From the NCBI GenBank assembly GCA_963814375.1, contig CAWFCQ010000003.1, forward strand, positions 32,001 through 96,000: a DNA stretch of 64,000 bases, read 5' to 3'. Shown here piece by piece: positions 27,175-35,222 of the stretch. The position numbers were made by a program, and so were the translations under genes. This DNA is from an uncultured Chloroflexia bacterium (GTDB taxonomy: Bacteria > Chloroflexota > Limnocylindria > QHBO01). The notes beneath the pieces are model-generated. The model was not told the origin of the DNA, ran no database searches, and worked only from the letters and a program-made list of their open reading frames with translations. The number at the start of each line of letters is the position of its first letter. Position 1 is the first letter of the stretch.

Positions 27175-29397
27175 GACACGTGCGACCGGCTGGCTCCGGA
27201 AGCAGCCCCGCGGTGCGCTCCTAGCTCTCGGCGCGGCGGCTGCGGTCTTCGTGTATGTCGGCTGGGATGGCGCGCTCTGGGACGCGCGCTGGCAGCTCGG
27301 GCTGCATCTGCTCGCCATCGGCGCCATCGGTGGATTGCTCGCGCTTGCCCTGCGTGGCGAGCCGATGCCGCGGACGCGGATCGACATGGCCGTCCTCGGC
27401 CTCATCGCCGCCTTTGCCCTCGCGACGCTGCTGGCAGTCAACCTCGGCATGAGCCTCCGCGCGATGGCGGCCATCAGCGCGACCGCGCTGATGCTGCCGG
27501 TCGCCCTGGTGGCCCTGCGCCATCGGCCGACGTGGACCGCGATCGTCATATGCGTGCCGGTGAGCGGCCTCGCGGCCGTGTCCCTCGGCACGATCGTGGC
27601 TCGACGTCTGGAGTGGATCCTCGTCGGCGCCCCCGGCCTTCCGGCCATCCGGATGCCCGGGGAGACGACCCCGTTCGGATCGGTCGCCGTCCCGCCGTTC
27701 GTCCTGCTCGGCGCGTGGGCCGTGGCGGGCGCCATCGAGGACGCCACGGGCCGCCGTTGGATGCGCACGATCATCCTCGTCCTCGGCGTCCCGCTGACGA
27801 TCCTCTCCGGGTCGCGCTCGGCTTGGCTGGCGATGGGCGTAGCGGGGGCGGTCCTCGTCGTGCCGTGGCTGTGGGAGCGCCGCGGCTCCACCGCGCGCCG
27901 CTGGCGGCCTTCCCGCCGAGCGCTGATCGCTCTCGCCGCGCTGGCCCTCGGCATCGCCGCCACCGTGGTCCTCGTGGCGCCGCGCGCCCTCTCGATCACC
28001 TCGCTGGTCTACCGCGGCGACCTGTGGCGCGACACCATCAACGCCTGGTCGCACAGCCCCATCACCGGAATCGGGCCGGGCATCATGCCGTACGCGCGCC
28101 AGGCGGCGGCGCCCGACTACTCGTTCCCGGTCAGCCAACCCCACTCGCACAACCTGGCCCTCGGCGTCCTGGGCGACGCCGGCATCATCGGGTTGGCGGC
28201 GGCGGTGGTGCTGGTGGTGAACCTGTTCGCGGTCGCAGGCCCCTGGCGATCGCGGACGGCGACCGGGCGCGGCGCCGCTGCCGTTCTCAGCGGGATCGCG
28301 GTCAGCGGGCTGTTCGAGGACATCACGTTCCTGCCGGGCTTCAACCTCATCGTGATCGTGCTCGTCGCCATGGCGCTGGCCGATGCGGGTGCGGTGACGT
28401 GGCGCCCCATCGGACCGCCCGAACGTGCCCGCGCACCGTGGCCGCCGTCGCCGCGGCCACGGTTCTGCTCGTCGCCATGGTCGTGGCGGATGCCGGTGGC
28501 ATCGCCTACCGGGCCGGCTCCGATGCCGCGAACGATCAGCGCTGGCCCGAGGCCGTCGCAGCCTACCGCCGGGCCGTATCGATCGACGCCTGGCACCCCA
28601 TGAACCCTGACGCGCTGGGCGTGGCGCTCGCCGCCGCCGGCGACGTGTCGGGCGCCGTCCAGCCGATGGCCGCGGCGACTGCGCTCAATCCCGGCAACGG
28701 GCGGGCCTGGGCCAATCTGACGGTGACATGCCGGGCCCTGGCCGACGCCGAGTGCCAGCGCGAGGCGGCGCGGAGAGCGGTCGCCGCATCGCGCCTCCAG
28801 GACAAGGCCATCATCAACGGTGCACAGAGCCTCGACGCACTCGGTGAGCAAGCCGATGCCGACGCTGCATACCGTCGCTCGCTTCTCACGCACCCGCTCA
28901 CCTCGTTCGCGGTCGACTGGCCGCGCCAGGTGGCTGTGGGCGACGGCATGATCGACGAGACGAACGGGCCGGCACCGGAGCTCAACGCGCTGCTCGGGCG
29001 GGTCAGCACCGGTGAGCCGATCGAGCCGGCCGACTACGCGACCGACGCGGTCCAGGCGCTGGCGTTCGCGATCGTCGGAGATGAGGACGCGTCCCGGGCG
29101 GCGATCGAGCGCGCGCACGGGAGCGCGCCGGACAGCCTGCTCACCTGGGAGGTCGACATGGTCCTCGCGCGAGAGCGAGGCGAGTCATCGGCCTATGCGG
29201 AGAATGTCTACGCCGTGCTCTCCGGGTCACCCGTCCTCCCGCCCGATCATCCGATCGAGGTGCCCGGCCTGGTGTTCGACATCGGGTCGTTTCGCAGCCT
29301 CCCGCGCGACGGTTTCGTACCGCAGGCGGAGGATCTGCGGGTATTCCCGCTGTACCCGTGGATCCTGGGCGAAGTGGTCCCCGACTCAGGCGGATAG
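27164..29397 (+). CDS. O-antigen ligase (Wzy_C)-like membrane protein with a C-terminal TPR region; apparent frameshift near 28410-28436
   Basis: SGSRSAWL, RGDLW, PITGIGPG, HSHN in one frame; a TM plus TPR-like helices (AVAAYRRAVSID, ALNPGNGRAWANL) continue in another frame. Confidence 0.8.
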
Positions 29398-30075
29398 CGG
29401 CAGTCGCTGGATCAGCGCCAGCCGCGGGCGTTCGGTGATCGCCGGCGGCTCCACGGGCAGTCGCAGCCACGCCTCGCCCGCCGGACCGGACCGGTACCGG
29501 GCGTCGAGCTTGCGGGCGCTGACCGCGGTCAGCCCGAACCGACCCAGCGCCTCGGCCATCAATGTCCCGTCACCCACCAGTGCGTGCGAGACAACGCACC
29601 GATCGCCATCGCGCAGGACCTCCTCCAGGCGGGCTCGACGGGCGGCGTAGGCGCGACGCTGCCACGAGACACCACCGCACCAGAGCAGGTCGCAGGCGAC
29701 GAACGCAGGACGGCCCGCGCTCCGGTCGCCGGCAAGTCGACGCCGAAGCAGGTCGTGATCGAGCCAGCCGCCCTCGTCCAGGGCGAGGAGCCAGCCGTCG
29801 AGCACGACCCCGTCATCGGTGAGCCGCTCCGGCAGCTCGTCGGCGAGCTCGGCGAACGCGGACTCCGCGTCGGCCAGTCCCTCCGCCCGCAGGCGAAGGA
29901 GGCGATGATCGTCGATCCAGGCCATCGCGCGGACGCCCGGCCACCATGGCTCGAAGAGGTACCCGGGATCATCAAATGGCGCGGCTCCGGCACTGGCGTG
30001 CATGGGAGCCACGCGCGCCGGCAGGCGCTGGGCAGGCTCAGTCGGGATCGAGAGGTCGAGCTGCTCGCCGGGCAC
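29386..30075 (-). CDS. ATP-dependent DNA ligase adenylation-domain homolog, catalytically degenerate
   Basis: PMHA, FEPWWPGVR (motif I lacks K and D), VLDGWL, FVACDLL, RRARLEE, YRSG, WLRLP; no OB domain. Start approximate. Confidence 0.8.
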   Translation of the reverse strand: MPGEQLDLSIPTEPAQRLPARVAPMHASAGAAPFDDPGYLFEPWWPGVRAMAWIDDHRLLRLRAEGLADAESAFAELADELPERLTDDGVVLDGWLLALDEGGWLDHDLLRRRLAGDRSAGRPAFVACDLLWCGGVSWQRRAYAARRARLEEVLRDGDRCVVSHALVGDGTLMAEALGRFGLTAVSARKLDARYRSGPAGEAWLRLPVEPPAITERPRLALIQRLPLSA

Positions 30076-30085
30076 GACCCGCAGG

Positions 30086-31003
30086 TCAGGCGGTCTTGCG
30101 CCGTCGCTGGCGCGGCGCCGCCTCTTCGGCCTTCGCCCGCTTCGCCCTGGCCGACGCCTTGGCTGGTGCCTTGGCGGTTGCCTTGGCCTTTGCCTTGGCC
30201 GGCGCGGCCTTCGGCGCCTTCCGATCCTCCCGGGCTGCCGAGACCGAGGCCTCGAGGGCCGCCATGAGGTCGGTGATGTTCGTCGGCTCGGCACGCTCCT
30301 GCGGCTCGGGCTCCTCGCCGGCGACCTTCTTCTCGATGACGTCCATCAGCGCCTGCCGGTAGCCGTCCTCGTAGTCCGCGGGGTTGAACTCACCGGTCAT
30401 GCTGGCGACGAGCTGCTCGGCCATCTTCCGCTCCGCGGGCTTGATGTCGACCTCGTCCTCGGGCAGGCTCAGCTCGTCGACGGCGCGAACCTCGTCCGGC
30501 CAGTGGAGCGTGGTCAGGAGCAGCGTCTTCGAGTACGGGTTGAGGGCGGCGAGCTGCTCGCGATCCTTCAGCACGATCTTGCAGATCGCGCTCTTGTTCT
30601 CCTCGACGAGGACGGACTTCAGCAGGTAGAACGCCTTCGCGCCGATCTGCTCGGGCTCGAGGTAGTAGGCCTGCTTCACGAACTGCGTGCCGGCGCCGTC
30701 GCGCGAGGCGTTGATGAACATCTCGATCTCGATGGCACGGACCGTCTTGAGCGGCACCGAGTCGGTGTCCTCGTCGCTGACGACGACGTACTTGCCCTTG
30801 CTCCATTCGTACCCACGCACCGTCTCCGACCGCGGGATCACCTCGTCATGGAAGGGGCAGTACACCTTCATCTGGATCCGGTTCAGGCAGCTGGCGTGCA
30901 GCAGGTTGAAGCCGATGCCTCCCTGCTCGGTCGCCAGGTACAGCTTCACCGGGATGGTCACCAGCCCGAACTGGATCGCCCCCCGCCACATCGATCGCGC
31001 CAT
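30086..31003 (-). CDS. ku: NHEJ DNA end-binding protein Ku
   Basis: MARSMWRGAIQFGLVTIPVKLY, RGYEWSKGKYV, YYLEP, LHWPDEVR, DLMAALEASV and a basic tail. Confidence 0.96.
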   Translation of the reverse strand: MARSMWRGAIQFGLVTIPVKLYLATEQGGIGFNLLHASCLNRIQMKVYCPFHDEVIPRSETVRGYEWSKGKYVVVSDEDTDSVPLKTVRAIEIEMFINASRDGAGTQFVKQAYYLEPEQIGAKAFYLLKSVLVEENKSAICKIVLKDREQLAALNPYSKTLLLTTLHWPDEVRAVDELSLPEDEVDIKPAERKMAEQLVASMTGEFNPADYEDGYRQALMDVIEKKVAGEEPEPQERAEPTNITDLMAALEASVSAAREDRKAPKAAPAKAKAKATAKAPAKASARAKRAKAEEAAPRQRRRKTA

Positions 31004-31191
31004 CGCGTGCGGTGCTCCTCGCCTGCGTCACGTCTTCGGTGGGAGCCCGGAGCACGCGCCGTGCCGGGCCCCGCGGGCGGTGATGGTACAACGGCATCGC
31101 AATCGCTCTGGAGCCGGGTCGATTTACCCCATCAGTACTATGCGGATGGGCCATAGACCGATGTCGGCGCCTGCGCGCGAGACTGGCCGCG

Positions 31192-31584
31192 ATGACCGAT
31201 GCGAGCGCTGCCCTGCGCGCCTACGTGCTCGAGGACGACCCCGATATCGCGGCCCTCGAGGCCGATCTCCTGCGCGAGATGGGCTTCGGCGTGGTGACCT
31301 GCACGCGGATCGTGGAGCTCGGCGACCTGATGGAAGTCGCGCTGCCGCACCTGCTGGTTGTCGACGTCATGCTCCCCGACGGCGATGGCGGTGACATCAC
31401 CGAGCTCCTGCGCACCGCGTGGCCGGGCATCCCGGCGATCTTCGTCTCGGCCGCCAGCCGCGACCGGCTTGCCGAGCTCGCACCGATCGGTCCGGTGGTG
31501 GCGAAGCCATTCGACCTCGACGCGTTCCGCGTCGCCGTCAACCAGGCCCTCGACGGCGACCGGGAGCTCCGCAGCGCATCGTGA
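31192..31584 (+). CDS. Single-domain response regulator
   Basis: LEDD, VDVMLPDGDG, FVSA, KPF. Confidence 0.88.
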   Translation: MTDASAALRAYVLEDDPDIAALEADLLREMGFGVVTCTRIVELGDLMEVALPHLLVVDVMLPDGDGGDITELLRTAWPGIPAIFVSAASRDRLAELAPIGPVVAKPFDLDAFRVAVNQALDGDRELRSAS

Positions 31585-32069: not shown

Positions 32070-32101
32070 CGCCGCAGCCTACCCGAGCGGGGGTCGTGCC
32101 G

Positions 32102-32854
32102 ATGCGGGTGATCCGCCCCGAGTCGATGGGCTCATCGCGCCGGCGCCCGGCTCTCCTGGCGCTGACCGTCCTGGCGGCCGGCGTGCTCTCGGTCGCGCTC
32201 ATGACCGTCGGGCAGCCGACCCCGCTTCGCACGGGCGTCCTGGCCACGACCGCCGCCGTCGGCATCGGCGTCGGGCTTGCGTGGCTGGTGCGGGCCATCC
32301 GGTCCGACCCGGGACGGCGCATCAGCGGCGCGCTGGTGACGCTCCTCTCGGCGACCTTCGATGACTCGTACACCCTGGTCGTCGCTCCCCGCCTCTCCAT
32401 CCGCGAGGGAGGTCGCCTCGACGGTCTGCTCGTCGGCCCGGGCGGCGTACGGGCCCTGACCGCCCGAGACTGGGTGGGCCATTACCGGCTGCGAGGCAGG
32501 ACCTGGGAGTTCGACTCGCACGGCCGCCACGGCTGGATCGTCTGTCGCACCAACCCGAGCCTCGAGGCCAACAAGCTGGCCGAGGGGGTCGGCCGCTGGA
32601 TGCGCGAGGCGGGGCTGCCCGACCTCACGCTGCGCGCAGCGGTGGTCTTTCCGCACCGCCACTCGCAGGTCGTGCTCGAGGAGCCTGCCGACGAGATCGT
32701 CACGACCGACAACGCGCCGTGGTGGGCGAACACGTTCGGTCGCGTGCGTCGCATCGATCCGGCCACTTCGGCGCGCGTCCTCGAGGCGGTGCTCGATGCC
32801 GCCGAGCCGGCGCGCCGCCTGGCCGAGCCGCGAACCGGGGGCCAGCAGCTCTAG
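32102..32854 (+). CDS. Membrane-anchored NERD (nuclease-related domain) protein, degenerate
   Basis: Two N-terminal TMs; LDGLLVGPGGVRALTARDWVG, NPSLEA and AAVVF match the NERD pattern but lack ExK. Confidence 0.72.
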   Translation: MRVIRPESMGSSRRRPALLALTVLAAGVLSVALMTVGQPTPLRTGVLATTAAVGIGVGLAWLVRAIRSDPGRRISGALVTLLSATFDDSYTLVVAPRLSIREGGRLDGLLVGPGGVRALTARDWVGHYRLRGRTWEFDSHGRHGWIVCRTNPSLEANKLAEGVGRWMREAGLPDLTLRAAVVFPHRHSQVVLEEPADEIVTTDNAPWWANTFGRVRRIDPATSARVLEAVLDAAEPARRLAEPRTGGQQL

Positions 32855-33450
32855 GCTGGCTCCTCCCCGGTGCCTCGCAGCCACACCTCGGCCGTCCGCT
32901 CGTCGAGCACGTCCGCCAGGAGCTGCTCCGGGTTCTCGTCATCGGCCACGAGCAGGATGTGCGCGAGATCGCGCCGAACGGCGAGCGCGGGCACGCTGAG
33001 CTCGAGGTCCGGATGGGCTCCGGACGAGATCGTGGCGTCGGTCATCGCCACGAAGCGGTCGGGGACGTTGAGCAGTCCGTCGATCGGACGGCCGCCGGGC
33101 GCGACGTGGATACGCCCCGTCACGCGCAACGGGGGAAGAGCCATCTGGGCCAGGACGGGACGCTTCATGATCCGCATGTCCCGCGAGGCCTCCCCAACGA
33201 GGTTCGGAGCGATGAGCACGAGGATCTCGCTCACCGCCACCATCGCCACCGGGGCGGCGACGGCCGTGGTCGCATTGGCGAACTCGGTGATCTGGGCGCG
33301 ATCGATGGCGAGATGCGAGCCGGTCACCTGGTTGACGATGTCGGCGACGCGGGTGAACCGGGTATGGACCGTCCCGCTGACGCGATAGGCGGCGGTGTAG
33401 GCGTCAACCTCAACGGGTGCCGCCGTGCCGTCCATCCCGAATCCGCTCAT
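32851..33450 (-). CDS. Hypothetical protein with two internally similar domains (DUF6812-like)
   Basis: YRVSGTVH...RVADIVN and LRVTGRIH...DGLLN...FVAMTDA are similar halves. Confidence 0.7.
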   Translation of the reverse strand: MSGFGMDGTAAPVEVDAYTAAYRVSGTVHTRFTRVADIVNQVTGSHLAIDRAQITEFANATTAVAAPVAMVAVSEILVLIAPNLVGEASRDMRIMKRPVLAQMALPPLRVTGRIHVAPGGRPIDGLLNVPDRFVAMTDATISSGAHPDLELSVPALAVRRDLAHILLVADDENPEQLLADVLDERTAEVWLRGTGEEPA

Positions 33451-33494: not shown

Positions 33495-35222
33495 CTACTC
33501 TGCGTCGCCGACGGCCTCGATCCGCTCGGTCTCGCCCGCTGCGCCGGTGGCCAGCAGGATGCGACCGGACGCCTGCTCGCCAAAGAGTGCCTCGACCGTG
33601 TCGAGCGTGTCGATCTCACCGGGCGTCTTGTCGTCGCGGATCCGGACGATGCGGGGGAATCGCATGGCGAAACCTGACCGATGCCGGCCGGACCGCATGA
33701 TGCGGTCGAAGGCGATCTCGACCACCACCTCGGGCACCACCGTCCGATACCTGCCGAAGTCCTCGAGCGTGATGCCGTGGAAGTGGTCGGTCATGGTGGC
33801 GATCTCGGCATCGGTCAGGCCGGTGTACGCCTTGCCGATTGTCAGCAGGCGAGCATCGGGCTCGTCGCTCTCGCGCACCGCGAAGGTGTAGTCGGAGAGC
33901 ACGCCGCGGCGCTTGCCGTGGCCCCACTCGACGCCGACCACCACGCAGTCGAGCGTCGCCAGCGCCTTCTTCAGCTTCAGCCAGCCCAGGCCACGCCGGC
34001 CTGGCTGGTAGGTCGAATCGGGGTCCTTGACCATCAGGCCCTCGTTGTGCCTCGCCCGGGCATCATCGAAGTGCCGATCGACCTCGCCCGCGGAGGTGGC
34101 GGTCGCGAGGTGCGATCGAAGGATCCTCTCGCCGGTTCGCTCGGGGAGGGAGAGCGCGTCGAGCGCCGCGCGTCGCTCGCGGAGCGGGGCCTCCAACAGG
34201 TCCTCCCCGCCGCGGTGCAGCAGGTCGAACGCAACGAGCACGACCGGCACCTCGGCCAGCAGCTCCTTCGACGGCCGGACGCGCCCGAGCCTCGTCTGGA
34301 GCGACGCGAAGTCGAGGACCGACCCCTCGCGCCACGGGACGAGCTCCCCATCGATCACCAGGGTGCCGTCGTCGACGAGGGCGCTCGACGCGGCCGCGAT
34401 CTCCGGAAACGAGCGCGTCACATCGTTCAGGTCGCGGCTGAAGAGCCGGATGGCTCCGCTCGCCTCGAGGTGGAGCTGGGCGCGGATGCCGTCGTACTTG
34501 TCCTCGATCCACGCCTCGTCACCGACGCGGCGCATCACCTCGGCCGCATCGGCCACGGGGGAGGCGAGCATGAACCTGATCGGCCGCCCGACGTGCAGCG
34601 CCGCCTCCGCCAGCCGCCCCGAGCGCGCCAGCAGGGCCGCCTCGCCGATCTCGCCGGTCAGCATGTGGGCGCGACGCACCGCGTCGAGGTCAGCTTCGAA
34701 GGCCGCGCCGATGGCCTCCTCGAGCAACCCTTCCCGGAGGCCGATGCGGGTCTCGCGCGAGACGATCCGGCCGATGAACCGCGCCTCGTCTCCCGAGGCA
34801 CGGCGGAAGAGATCGGTAAGGAGCCGAACGCGCGCGTCCGTCTTCGCTGCGCCGGAGATGGCGCCGAAGCCGGCGGCGACATCGGCGACCGTCAGTCCTG
34901 CCGGACCGCTGTCCGCGAGCAGCTCGCCGGCGGCGTCGCCGAAGTCGGAGTGGCGCAGATATGCCGCTCGCAGGCCGTCCTCGTCGGCACCGCTGGCCGC
35001 CGCGAGGGCCGCGCCCTGCTGGACCCAGCCAAGGCCGAGCTTGGCAGTGGGATCCAGGAGCGGCCGCCCCGCAAAGAACACGCTCGCGGCTGCCAGGTCA
35101 TCGGCTGGGAGCGCGCGGAGATAGCCGGCGAGCAGATCGCGCTTCGCGTTCTTGCTTCTCGTGGATCCGACCGCGGCGGCCGTGGCCGCCAGATCGGCGA
35201 AGGGTGTCGAGGCTGCGGCCAT
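33495..35222 (-). CDS. ATP-dependent DNA ligase (LigB/archaeal-like, full length)
   Basis: EDKYDGIR, IDGEL, AFDLL, EGLMVK, WLKLK, GKAYTG, RFPR all intact. Confidence 0.95.
   Translation of the reverse strand: MAAASTPFADLAATAAAVGSTRSKNAKRDLLAGYLRALPADDLAAASVFFAGRPLLDPTAKLGLGWVQQGAALAAASGADEDGLRAAYLRHSDFGDAAGELLADSGPAGLTVADVAAGFGAISGAAKTDARVRLLTDLFRRASGDEARFIGRIVSRETRIGLREGLLEEAIGAAFEADLDAVRRAHMLTGEIGEAALLARSGRLAEAALHVGRPIRFMLASPVADAAEVMRRVGDEAWIEDKYDGIRAQLHLEASGAIRLFSRDLNDVTRSFPEIAAASSALVDDGTLVIDGELVPWREGSVLDFASLQTRLGRVRPSKELLAEVPVVLVAFDLLHRGGEDLLEAPLRERRAALDALSLPERTGERILRSHLATATSAGEVDRHFDDARARHNEGLMVKDPDSTYQPGRRGLGWLKLKKALATLDCVVVGVEWGHGKRRGVLSDYTFAVRESDEPDARLLTIGKAYTGLTDAEIATMTDHFHGITLEDFGRYRTVVPEVVVEIAFDRIMRSGRHRSGFAMRFPRIVRIRDDKTPGEIDTLDTVEALFGEQASGRILLATGAAGETERIEAVGDAE

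Follow-up and report, generated by a model that had tools for sequence, protein, structure and literature searches.

A conserved, OB-less relative of the LigD ligase domain encoded directly after ku in uncultured Chloroflexota: a candidate non-catalytic accessory of bacterial end joining

Introduction

In the parts of the literature open to us, non-homologous end joining (NHEJ) in bacteria is usually described as a two-protein system composed of Ku and LigD. Must the ligase domain that accompanies Ku always be an enzyme? The question is raised by a stretch of 64,000 nucleotides from an uncultured Chloroflexia bacterium (contig CAWFCQ010000003.1, positions 32,001–96,000 of the forward strand), which we call the window and in whose coordinates positions are given. 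Here ku is followed by a gene for a LigD-type nucleotidyltransferase (NTase) domain in which the catalytic motifs are systematically altered. We refer to this gene and its product as the pseudo-ligase (table 1). The lineages with which it is compared are, like its source, all uncultured and represented by metagenome-assembled genomes.

The closest relative of solved structure is the ligase domain of Mycobacterium tuberculosis LigD (1VS0, 6NHX). With it the pseudo-ligase shares the NTase fold and the N-terminal ‘PM...PFDDP..FE’ lead-in. However, other residues stand in place of the motif I Lys and Asp, the motif III Glu, the motif IIIa Phe and the lysines of motifs IV and V. It also lacks the OB domain (about 125 residues) and is fused to neither a polymerase (POL) nor a phosphoesterase (PE) domain, while it adds an N-terminal hexapeptide and a C-terminal tail. 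Ligases use the OB domain together with the NTase domain for the first step of the reaction and for DNA binding. On balance we favour, at somewhat better than even expectation, the view that the pseudo-ligase descends from a stand-alone NHEJ ligase linked to Ku, has lost both its activity and its OB domain, and is maintained by selection as a non-catalytic accessory or adaptor.

A LigD-type domain without its catalytic residues

What kind of protein is encoded after ku? The initial annotation, made from the letters alone, had described an adenylation-domain homologue of about 229 residues some 10 bp after ku. That description stands: the spacer is 10 nt, the frame runs from 29386 to 30075 and the product matches the NTase half of the LigD ligase models. 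The match to NF007210 (1.8e-24) covers positions 469–657 of 781, the NTase half only of the LigD ligase domain, and that to TIGR02779 (9.8e-18) covers positions 5–182 of 302. With TIGR02779 the score is 64.4 bits against a cut-off of 227.75, and with PF01068 it is 20.7 bits against 26.2. Scans with Pfam and TIGR models returned no OB (PF04679), POL or PE domain and the AlphaFold2 (AF2) model shows no further domain, which bears out the absence of these domains from an intact frame as first reported; the protein ends 22 residues past motif V. A longer frame of 302 residues, opening at GTG 30294 and overlapping ku, finds no support, since the homologues of 229–250 residues all start with VPG[ED]QLDL right after the ku stop codon.

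How far has the active site been altered? A search of the PDB with the family profile found 1VS0 as the best match (6.9e-28), residues 21–204 of the pseudo-ligase aligning with chain residues 8–186. In this alignment the catalytic Lys falls on W44 and the Asp of motif I on P46. Before the Asp of motif IIIa, where 1VS0 and the canonical ligases compared have a Phe, the pseudo-ligase has a Cys. This Cys adds to the four altered motifs listed in the initial annotation (FEPWWPGVR, DGW, TAVSAR and WLRLP), all of which had been read correctly.

Lysine is scarce beyond the motifs as well. The only one in the 229 residues, K189, stands where the family consensus has Arg (SARRLD), and zero lysines are present in 14 of the 18 proteins of subfamily A (defined below) from other genera. 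Among the conserved columns of the family there is no Lys and no His. Since most members are without any lysine, lysyl-AMP chemistry is excluded; as far as the aligned sequences can speak, a lysyl- or histidyl-nucleotide intermediate is excluded for the pseudo-ligase, and we predict that it neither adenylates itself nor seals nicks. Because the replacements are conserved and Arg is kept at the Lys positions of motifs IV and V, the remodelled pocket may have taken on a new, non-catalytic role.

The AF2 model, built from a 36-row alignment, has a mean pLDDT of 90 and a pTM of 0.81. The N-terminal 20 residues (pLDDT 54–69) and the tail (71–73) are predicted with no secondary structure. The top Foldseek matches of the model are the adenylation domains of ATP-dependent ligases, at a probability of 1.00 (9df9 at 1.9e-14); among them are 6nhx and 1vs0, with TMq values of 0.68–0.69 and 28% identity. 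On these models we are confident that the protein has the ligase NTase fold. In the ESM Atlas the nearest clusters were ligase-domain or hypothetical proteins of Chloroflexota, with nothing further. The calculated pI is about 5 in the genus of the window and 4.6–10.4 across the family; that of the NTase domain of the organism’s own LigD is 9.7. We considered, and dropped, an acidic DNA mimic as a general rule in view of this family range.

Homologues are named ‘hypothetical protein’ at NCBI and ‘bifunctional non-homologous end joining protein LigD’ or ‘ATP-dependent DNA ligase’ at JGI, and their source labels include Candidatus Limnocylindria and Chloroflexota metagenome-assembled genomes. Automatic names of the JGI kind call for caution when they are attached to genes of the pseudo-ligase type.

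Conservation of the replaced residues

If the chemistry is gone, is the gene decaying? An intact orthologue, 71–85% identical and with zero stop codons, occurs in all 24 of the other genomes of the genus (one of them, G006, unpublished), and the gene is directly preceded by ku in each of the 25 loci of the genus, the window included. We aligned 24 full-length sequences, leaving aside L029 and L030, two copies truncated at the ends of their contigs. Invariant or nearly so are the Val-Pro start encoded by GTG, FE[PA]WWPG, DGWLL, FVAxDLLW, SAR[RK]LDARYR, WLR[VLI]P and the C-terminal ERPRLALIQRLP. Pairwise NG86 estimates for 23 sequences of the genus (253 pairs) gave a median dN of 0.18, a median dS of 0.84 and a median dN/dS of 0.21, with a maximum dN/dS of 0.39. 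The pseudo-ligase is thus under purifying selection.

The wider set of homologues tells the same. A word-indexed database search returned 947 at E ≤ 0.001, the best 120 of which are 73–100% identical to the query and 229–250 residues long. Among these 120 and the query, FE[PA]WWPG is present in 120 of 121 (the remaining one reads WWPA), the C-terminal tail in 120 and the N-terminal QLxLxI in all 121. The conservation of the WW motif, proposed at the outset as a check, is therefore nearly complete. Neutral decay of a copy whose close orthologues keep KxDG is contradicted by the alignment, by dN/dS and by these counts. We conclude from the intact orthologues, the low dN/dS and the conservation of the replacement residues themselves that the pseudo-ligase is not a decaying pseudogene; it is maintained, as the initial annotation had supposed.

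Two subfamilies of dead ligase domains

Where does the family end? An exhaustive HMMER search over 1.84 billion cluster representatives gave 3059 matches at E ≤ 0.001, just 23 of them at E ≤ 1e-30. The listed representatives that score better than about 1e-26 and cover motif I all read FEPWWP[GA]; these representatives likewise lack the motif III Glu, read xSAR for motif IV and WLRxP for motif V, and carry the tail. At 2.8e-26 a canonical ligase enters the list for the first time, with FEPKWDGYR, DGE, EGAMAK and WLKLK. We found no family member fused to a further domain in this search; a handful of longer entries are metagenomic predictions with a frameshift or a wrong start.

Within the class, a profile search of 201 genomes (nine unpublished) found strong matches (E ≤ 1.4e-82) in 62 of the 67 genomes of the window’s own taxonomic family (f1), that of the window (G000) counted. 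In three of the other five (G178, G181 and G210) the best listed matches are partial over the profile, that of G178 abutting a contig end. A second family (f3) has matches across many genera; the third (f2) has them at the level of canonical ligases only; and in the fourth the same search gave zero matches in seven of seven small genomes (1.0–1.4 Mb).

We then have, from other genera, 36 loci (none unpublished), which divide equally into two subfamilies. The 18 loci of subfamily A carry FEPWWPG, and 17 have ku as the immediate upstream neighbour, a linkage kept across two taxonomic families. In four loci of one genus (L031, L048, L070 and L071) the order is ku, pseudo-ligase, LigD, the last being of the PE-Lig-Pol type. 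The 18 loci of subfamily B encode proteins 30–37% identical to the query. Their motif I is FEPxWGG, in which the Lys has become S, T, A, V, W or R and the Asp has become Gly (Ala in one locus); DGE is retained in 16 of 18, motifs IV and V read xARxxx and LWRxI, and the tail is the same (PVLAL[IL]RRLPLD). In none of the 18 is ku found within 4 kb, and in 17 the gene adjoins, tail to tail, a gene for an ABC-2 permease.

Loss of the motif I Lys is also seen outside this family. Some 4 kb past the right end of the window (contig C3:100199-100771; L005:1429-2106, minus strand), between genes resembling a DEAD-box helicase and a glycosyltransferase, the same genome encodes a second Lys-less and OB-less LigD-like NTase of 225 residues. 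It reads FEPLWPGER, keeps WLKLS, has neither QLxLxI nor the tail and scores 30.1 bits with PF01068. Matches of this size lie 29–39 kb from the ku–pseudo-ligase pair in several genomes of the genus. The branch of this paralogue in the tree described below is very long, and we did not use it for inferring origins. Other LigD-like proteins of which the motif I Lys is gone are P0161, P0168, P0174, P0176, P0180, P0195, P0198, P0199, P0206, P0213, P0228, P0229, P0234, P0256, P0257, P0264 and P0271; they have R, L, W, D, S, A, N, G or Q in its place, and most are 250–400 residues long. Lys-less ligase paralogues may thus be recurrent, in a sample of sequences that is biased towards them since the query is itself Lys-less.

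A live ligase in the same place

From what might the pseudo-ligase have descended? In the sister family f2 (loci L072–L075, representative P0240), ku is followed within about 20–60 nt by a ligase of 351–364 residues with intact KWDG, DGE, EGxxAK and WLK. In L075 this live ligase scores 77 bits with PF01068 and 27.8 bits with the OB model PF04679, just over the cut-off of 27.5; in L073 the OB score is 18.2 bits, under that cut-off. Its start, GTG-CCG (Val-Pro), is identical to that of the pseudo-ligase, and its C-terminus, TERPRLVVLQSLRL or DRPRLIVLNSLPF, is aligned by BLASTP with the pseudo-ligase tail as a second high-scoring segment pair. The two proteins therefore agree in their place after ku, in their start and in the tail RPRLx[VL]Lx[SR]L[PR][FL], and are 35% identical over the NTase domain. 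They differ in length, in the intact motifs and OB domain (over the cut-off in L075, under it in L073) of the live ligase, and in QLxLxI, which the live ligase lacks.

The tail pattern is restricted. Among 150 representatives it was matched 24 times in total, only in subfamilies A and B and the live ligase, P0264 being included among the matches. P0264 has 385 residues, an Arg for the catalytic Lys, a C-terminal half of the length of an OB domain, the N-terminal motif QLALDL and the tail. A quick tree of the NTase part alone (67 rows, LG+G4, SH-aLRT support) recovered subfamily A at 99, subfamily B at 100 and the live ligase at 100; within these 67 rows it did not resolve the mutual order of the three or their relation to LigD. 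It is position, start and tail, not the tree, that argue for a common descent of A, B and the live ligase. Judged by these sequence features, the pseudo-ligase would be the positional counterpart of a Ku-linked stand-alone ligase, minus about 125 residues (the OB domain) and all of the chemistry, with the tail retained. The path from enzyme to pseudoenzyme may be laid out in present-day proteins, from the live Ku-linked ligase through a Lys-less form with a probable OB domain (P0264) to the OB-less dead form. This origin, like the tail and the N-terminal QLxLxI, was not part of the initial annotation.

Short peptides at the two termini

What role might be played by the terminal peptides? In both dead subfamilies the motif Q-L-x-L-x-[I/L/M] stands a few residues past the start. 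Among the same 121 close homologues it reads QLDLPI in 61, QLDLSI in 38 and QLGLPI in 14, and exactly QLSLPL is found in loci L036 and L053. A loose form of the pattern within the first 15 residues is rare in the genome, in 3 of 2660 open reading frames filtered by G+C content at third codon positions, with crude frame starts. A class of hexapeptides is described that bind the beta sliding clamp, among them the tight-binding Hda peptide QLSLPL, with QL[S/D]LF as general consensus (PMC12309361). The pseudo-ligase hexapeptide resembles these in sequence and lies at the extreme N-terminus, in a segment of low model confidence that is probably disordered; it ends in Ile in the genus of the window, where the Hda peptide and the consensus end in Leu or Phe. 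The DinB homologue of the genome has QLTLF near its C-terminus (locus L080, frame 751-2211 on the minus strand, contig C6), and the lineage thus appears to use canonical clamp-binding motifs. The end of the tail, ..RLPL or ..SLPF, recalls in its letters the end of such motifs. Published work connecting NHEJ ligases with clamp-binding motifs did not come up in a search that left most subscription journals aside.

Possible contact with Ku and the source of sealing

Does the pseudo-ligase touch Ku? In published work the C-terminus of M. tuberculosis Ku touches D522, K579 and L580 in the ligase domain of LigD (PMC13717202). In the 1VS0 alignment D522 corresponds to D87 of the pseudo-ligase and K579/L580 to a conserved RRxxL helix (residues 146–150), all within the retained NTase part. 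By analogy, contact of the Ku arm with the pseudo-ligase is plausible, the alignment being in itself no evidence of contact. We modelled two Ku chains with the pseudo-ligase, each from its own alignment, and ran three controls. The ipSAE was 0.43, 0.38 and 0.40 (median 0.40) against 0.00 in all three controls, with a partner pLDDT of 75 or more and 34% or more of the contacts common to the runs; the verdict of the procedure was ‘weak support’. In calibration, 116 of 157 solved complexes and 2 of 215 mismatched pairs had passed the mark, and values at or below 0.60 accounted for 18 of the 157 solved complexes and both of the passing mismatches. The partnership with Ku first proposed thus holds as a gene linkage throughout the genus and in all but one of the subfamily-A loci elsewhere; as physical binding it is only weakly indicated by the complex model.

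If the pseudo-ligase does not seal, what does? The initial annotation assigned sealing to the three-domain ligase at 33495–35222. That ligase is intact, but the assignment as it was worded is not supported, for the genome also has a canonical LigD on another contig (a PE-Lig-Pol frame with FEVKWDGYR, 293 bits with TIGR02779) and in a related genus LigD follows ku and the pseudo-ligase directly. A further ligase is encoded on contig 2. Frames of the size of LigD (at least 800 residues) are present in at least 20 of the 25 genomes of the genus, so the pseudo-ligase coexists with LigD and does not replace it. The three-domain ligase lies about 4–5.6 kb from the pseudo-ligase, and no more than some 5 kb from ku, on the same contig in 16 of the 25 genomes; in other genera of the family, 3 of 11 loci have it within 4 kb. 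It does not belong to the ku operon, since genes on both strands lie in between.

The locus and its neighbours

The coordinates are collected in table 1. The product of ku is matched by PF02735 (Ku) at 1.3e-37 and by TIGR02772 over all of its positions, 1–259 of 259, at 263.9 bits against a cut-off of 150; in the 12 loci of the genus that were measured, 8–13 nt separate ku from the pseudo-ligase. The C-terminus of Ku (window 30086–30300 and the orthologues in loci L007–L076) is a Lys/Ala-rich extension of variable length with the conserved end ..RRRK[TS]A. In the family with the live ligase this end reads R[RK]K[AT][SA]; it is conserved across the class whichever form of ligase follows ku, and we rejected it for this reason as a mark specific to the pseudo-ligase.

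A scan of 29000–31400 found zero promoter-like sites and one terminator-like site, within ku and on the wrong strand. PADLOC gave no match for four proteins of the locus and PHROGs none for the pseudo-ligase. RNA contigs were taken from four rhizosphere metatranscriptome runs of one study (shares across seven runs only 0.05–0.17). Short contigs with 0–1 differences lie over parts of ku, and others over 29300–29494, which holds the 3′ end of the pseudo-ligase and a convergent neighbour gene. In these four runs no contig joins ku to the pseudo-ligase, most of which is uncovered. The contigs are strandless and may derive from DNA carry-over, so that they neither show nor exclude transcription.

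Three neighbouring genes complete the picture: one for a stand-alone response-regulator receiver domain, a frame of 252 residues and a gene for a DUF6812 protein. The last lies about 45 nt downstream of the three-domain ligase, with which it looks like a two-gene unit.

Table 1. Position and character of the pseudo-ligase, its sequence elements and the genes around it (window coordinates unless loci are named).
Feature	Position	Strand	Description
Pseudo-ligase	29386..30075	minus	229 aa + stop; LigD-type NTase fold only, no OB; single lysine K189
N-terminal hexapeptide QLDLSI (residues 5-10)	30046..30063	minus	clamp-motif-like; conserved in subfamilies A and B
Motif I remnant FEPWWPGVR (residues 41-49)	29929..29955	minus	W44 for adenylated Lys, P46 for Asp
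Motif III remnant LDGWLL (residues 92-97)	29785..29802	minus	Glu replaced by Trp (Thr in other genera)
Motif IIIa remnant FVACDLLW (residues 125-132)	29680..29703	minus	canonical Phe before Asp replaced by Cys, Ser, Ala or Thr
Motif IV remnant TAVSAR (residues 183-188)	29512..29529	minus	EG gone, Lys replaced by Arg
Motif V remnant WLRLP (residues 203-207)	29455..29469	minus	two Lys replaced by Arg and Pro
Conserved C-terminal tail ERPRLALIQRLPL (residues 215-227)	29395..29433	minus	common to subfamily B and the live Ku-linked ligase of the sister family
Spacer, ku stop to pseudo-ligase GTG	30076..30085	minus	10 nt; ku TGA at 30086-30088
ku	30086..31003	minus	305 aa; Ku core, variable Lys/Ala-rich C-terminal extension, conserved end ..RRRKTA
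Response-regulator receiver domain, stand-alone	31192..31584	plus	PF00072 8.5e-12; divergent from ku
252-aa open reading frame	32096..32854	plus	between OsmC-like and DUF6812 genes; no Pfam or PADLOC match
DUF6812 protein gene	32851..33450	minus	PF20660 2e-08
Intact three-domain ATP-dependent ligase	33495..35222	minus	N-terminal (PF04675), adenylation (PF01068) and OB (PF04679) domains; KYDG; syntenic with ku and pseudo-ligase in the genus, not in the same operon
Subfamily B loci	L033, L051-L067, L069		other genera of the class; FEPxWGG, OB-less, N-terminal QLxLxL and tail, away from ku

Discussion

How might a dead ligase domain serve Ku? If it is the non-catalytic accessory that we favour, the pseudo-ligase would be co-translated with Ku and would bind it, through the NTase surface that the Ku C-terminal arm touches on M. 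tuberculosis LigD, through the tail, or through both. The short peptides at its two ends may anchor another partner, be it the beta sliding clamp, LigD or Ku itself. By such contacts the pseudo-ligase would organise or regulate end joining, and sealing would fall to a real ligase, the canonical LigD on the other contig or the three-domain ligase of the window, or both. A bolder version is a three-component NHEJ in Limnocylindria-type bacteria, in which the dead NTase domain holds the Ku arm and QLxLxI, possibly with the ..RLPL tail, docks on the beta clamp. We think this version improbable as it stands.

Several observations weigh against an accessory of Ku, or against parts of the scheme. One subfamily-A locus, L049, has no ku nearby and lies in an unrelated context. 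Subfamily B retains both terminal motifs at a distance from ku, so that the partner of the motifs need not be Ku. Net charge is not conserved, which argues against a single electrostatic mode, whether DNA mimicry or DNA binding. The tree does not settle whether the live ligase shares a single clade with A and B, and the RNA evidence for ku and the pseudo-ligase is fragmentary. The ipSAE of the complex model falls where, by the calibration counts, passing values are false more often than true unless the partnership was probable to begin with, and no interface is reported. Lastly, the clamp reading of the N-terminal motif would rest on the resemblance of six residues.

Could the pseudo-ligase instead hold end joining back? 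As a decoy or negative regulator it would occupy the Ku C-terminal arm, and perhaps the clamp, against LigD, and so restrain or time the reaction. It retains the fold that the Ku C-terminus touches on LigD (PMC13717202), it is incapable of ligation and its spacing after ku suggests equimolar synthesis. In the genus it is acidic where the Ku tail is basic and the organism’s own LigD NTase domain has a pI of 9.7, and the weakly supported complex with Ku (ipSAE 0.40 against 0.00) would suit a decoy too. However, the pI is not conserved over the family, the ku–pseudo-ligase–LigD array of one genus fits a cooperating subunit at least equally well, and the computed data are silent on the direction of the effect; we hold a decoy to be unlikely. 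A different proposal turns on the pocket, which might bind a nucleotide, a 5′-phosphate or an adenylated DNA end and so make the protein an end sensor or protector, or the seat of a new non-ligase chemistry. That the replacements are conserved and not random (WWPG, DG[WT], SAR, WLRxP), that positive charge is kept as Arg in motifs IV and V and that the fold is intact all speak for it. Yet the nucleophile, the motif III Glu and the motif IIIa Phe have all gone together, no conserved Lys or His is left anywhere and the OB domain is missing. We rate this proposal as distinctly unlikely.

It is also conceivable that the protein is a clamp-associated factor unrelated to end joining, whose place after ku is a leftover of its ligase ancestry. 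The main support for this comes from subfamily B, which keeps both terminal motifs away from ku and in 17 of 18 loci lies tail to tail with the ABC-2 permease gene; the resemblance of the N-terminal motif to clamp-binding motifs points the same way. But the linkage of subfamily A to ku, with its 8–13 nt spacer and its persistence in two taxonomic families, is hard to explain without a shared function, and the complex model, weakly, favours Ku as a partner, so that we give this explanation slightly less credit still. As for a decaying pseudogene or an annotation artefact, it could appeal to scores below the curated cut-offs of all ligase models and to the discordant names at NCBI (‘hypothetical protein’) and JGI (LigD or ligase). 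Against it stand the 947 homologues at E ≤ 0.001 with the best 120 all of 229–250 residues, the zero stop codons in 24 orthologues of the genus, the median dN/dS of 0.21, the conserved start, motifs and tail, and the confident fold. This last explanation is hardly credible.

Comparison with known systems

What, then, is new? The fold and the operon type are known; a conserved, dead and OB-less ligase as a putative Ku partner with terminal peptides appears to be new. We found no published description of a Lys-less or OB-less LigD-like partner of Ku, most subscription journals lying outside the search, and a term search of a comparative study of NHEJ found no such protein (PMC7719229). Where NHEJ is usually described with two proteins, a third and non-catalytic one, probably dedicated to it, has persisted next to ku throughout a large, uncultured class of Chloroflexota from soil and fresh water. 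Its two short conserved peptides and its conserved WWPG pocket offer handles on the way in which Ku recruits its partners.

Should the three-component version prove right, DNA ends bound by Ku would be coupled to repair enzymes bound to the clamp, which would be the first link between NHEJ and the clamp in bacteria, and the pseudo-ligase would be a bacterial counterpart of the scaffolds XRCC4, XLF and PAXX. These are non-enzymatic proteins of eukaryotic NHEJ that bind Ku or the ligase by means of short terminal peptides and organise end joining. The comparison is a working analogy, with no relation in sequence or fold: the eukaryotic scaffolds are coiled-coil proteins with a head domain, whereas the pseudo-ligase appears to be derived from a ligase.

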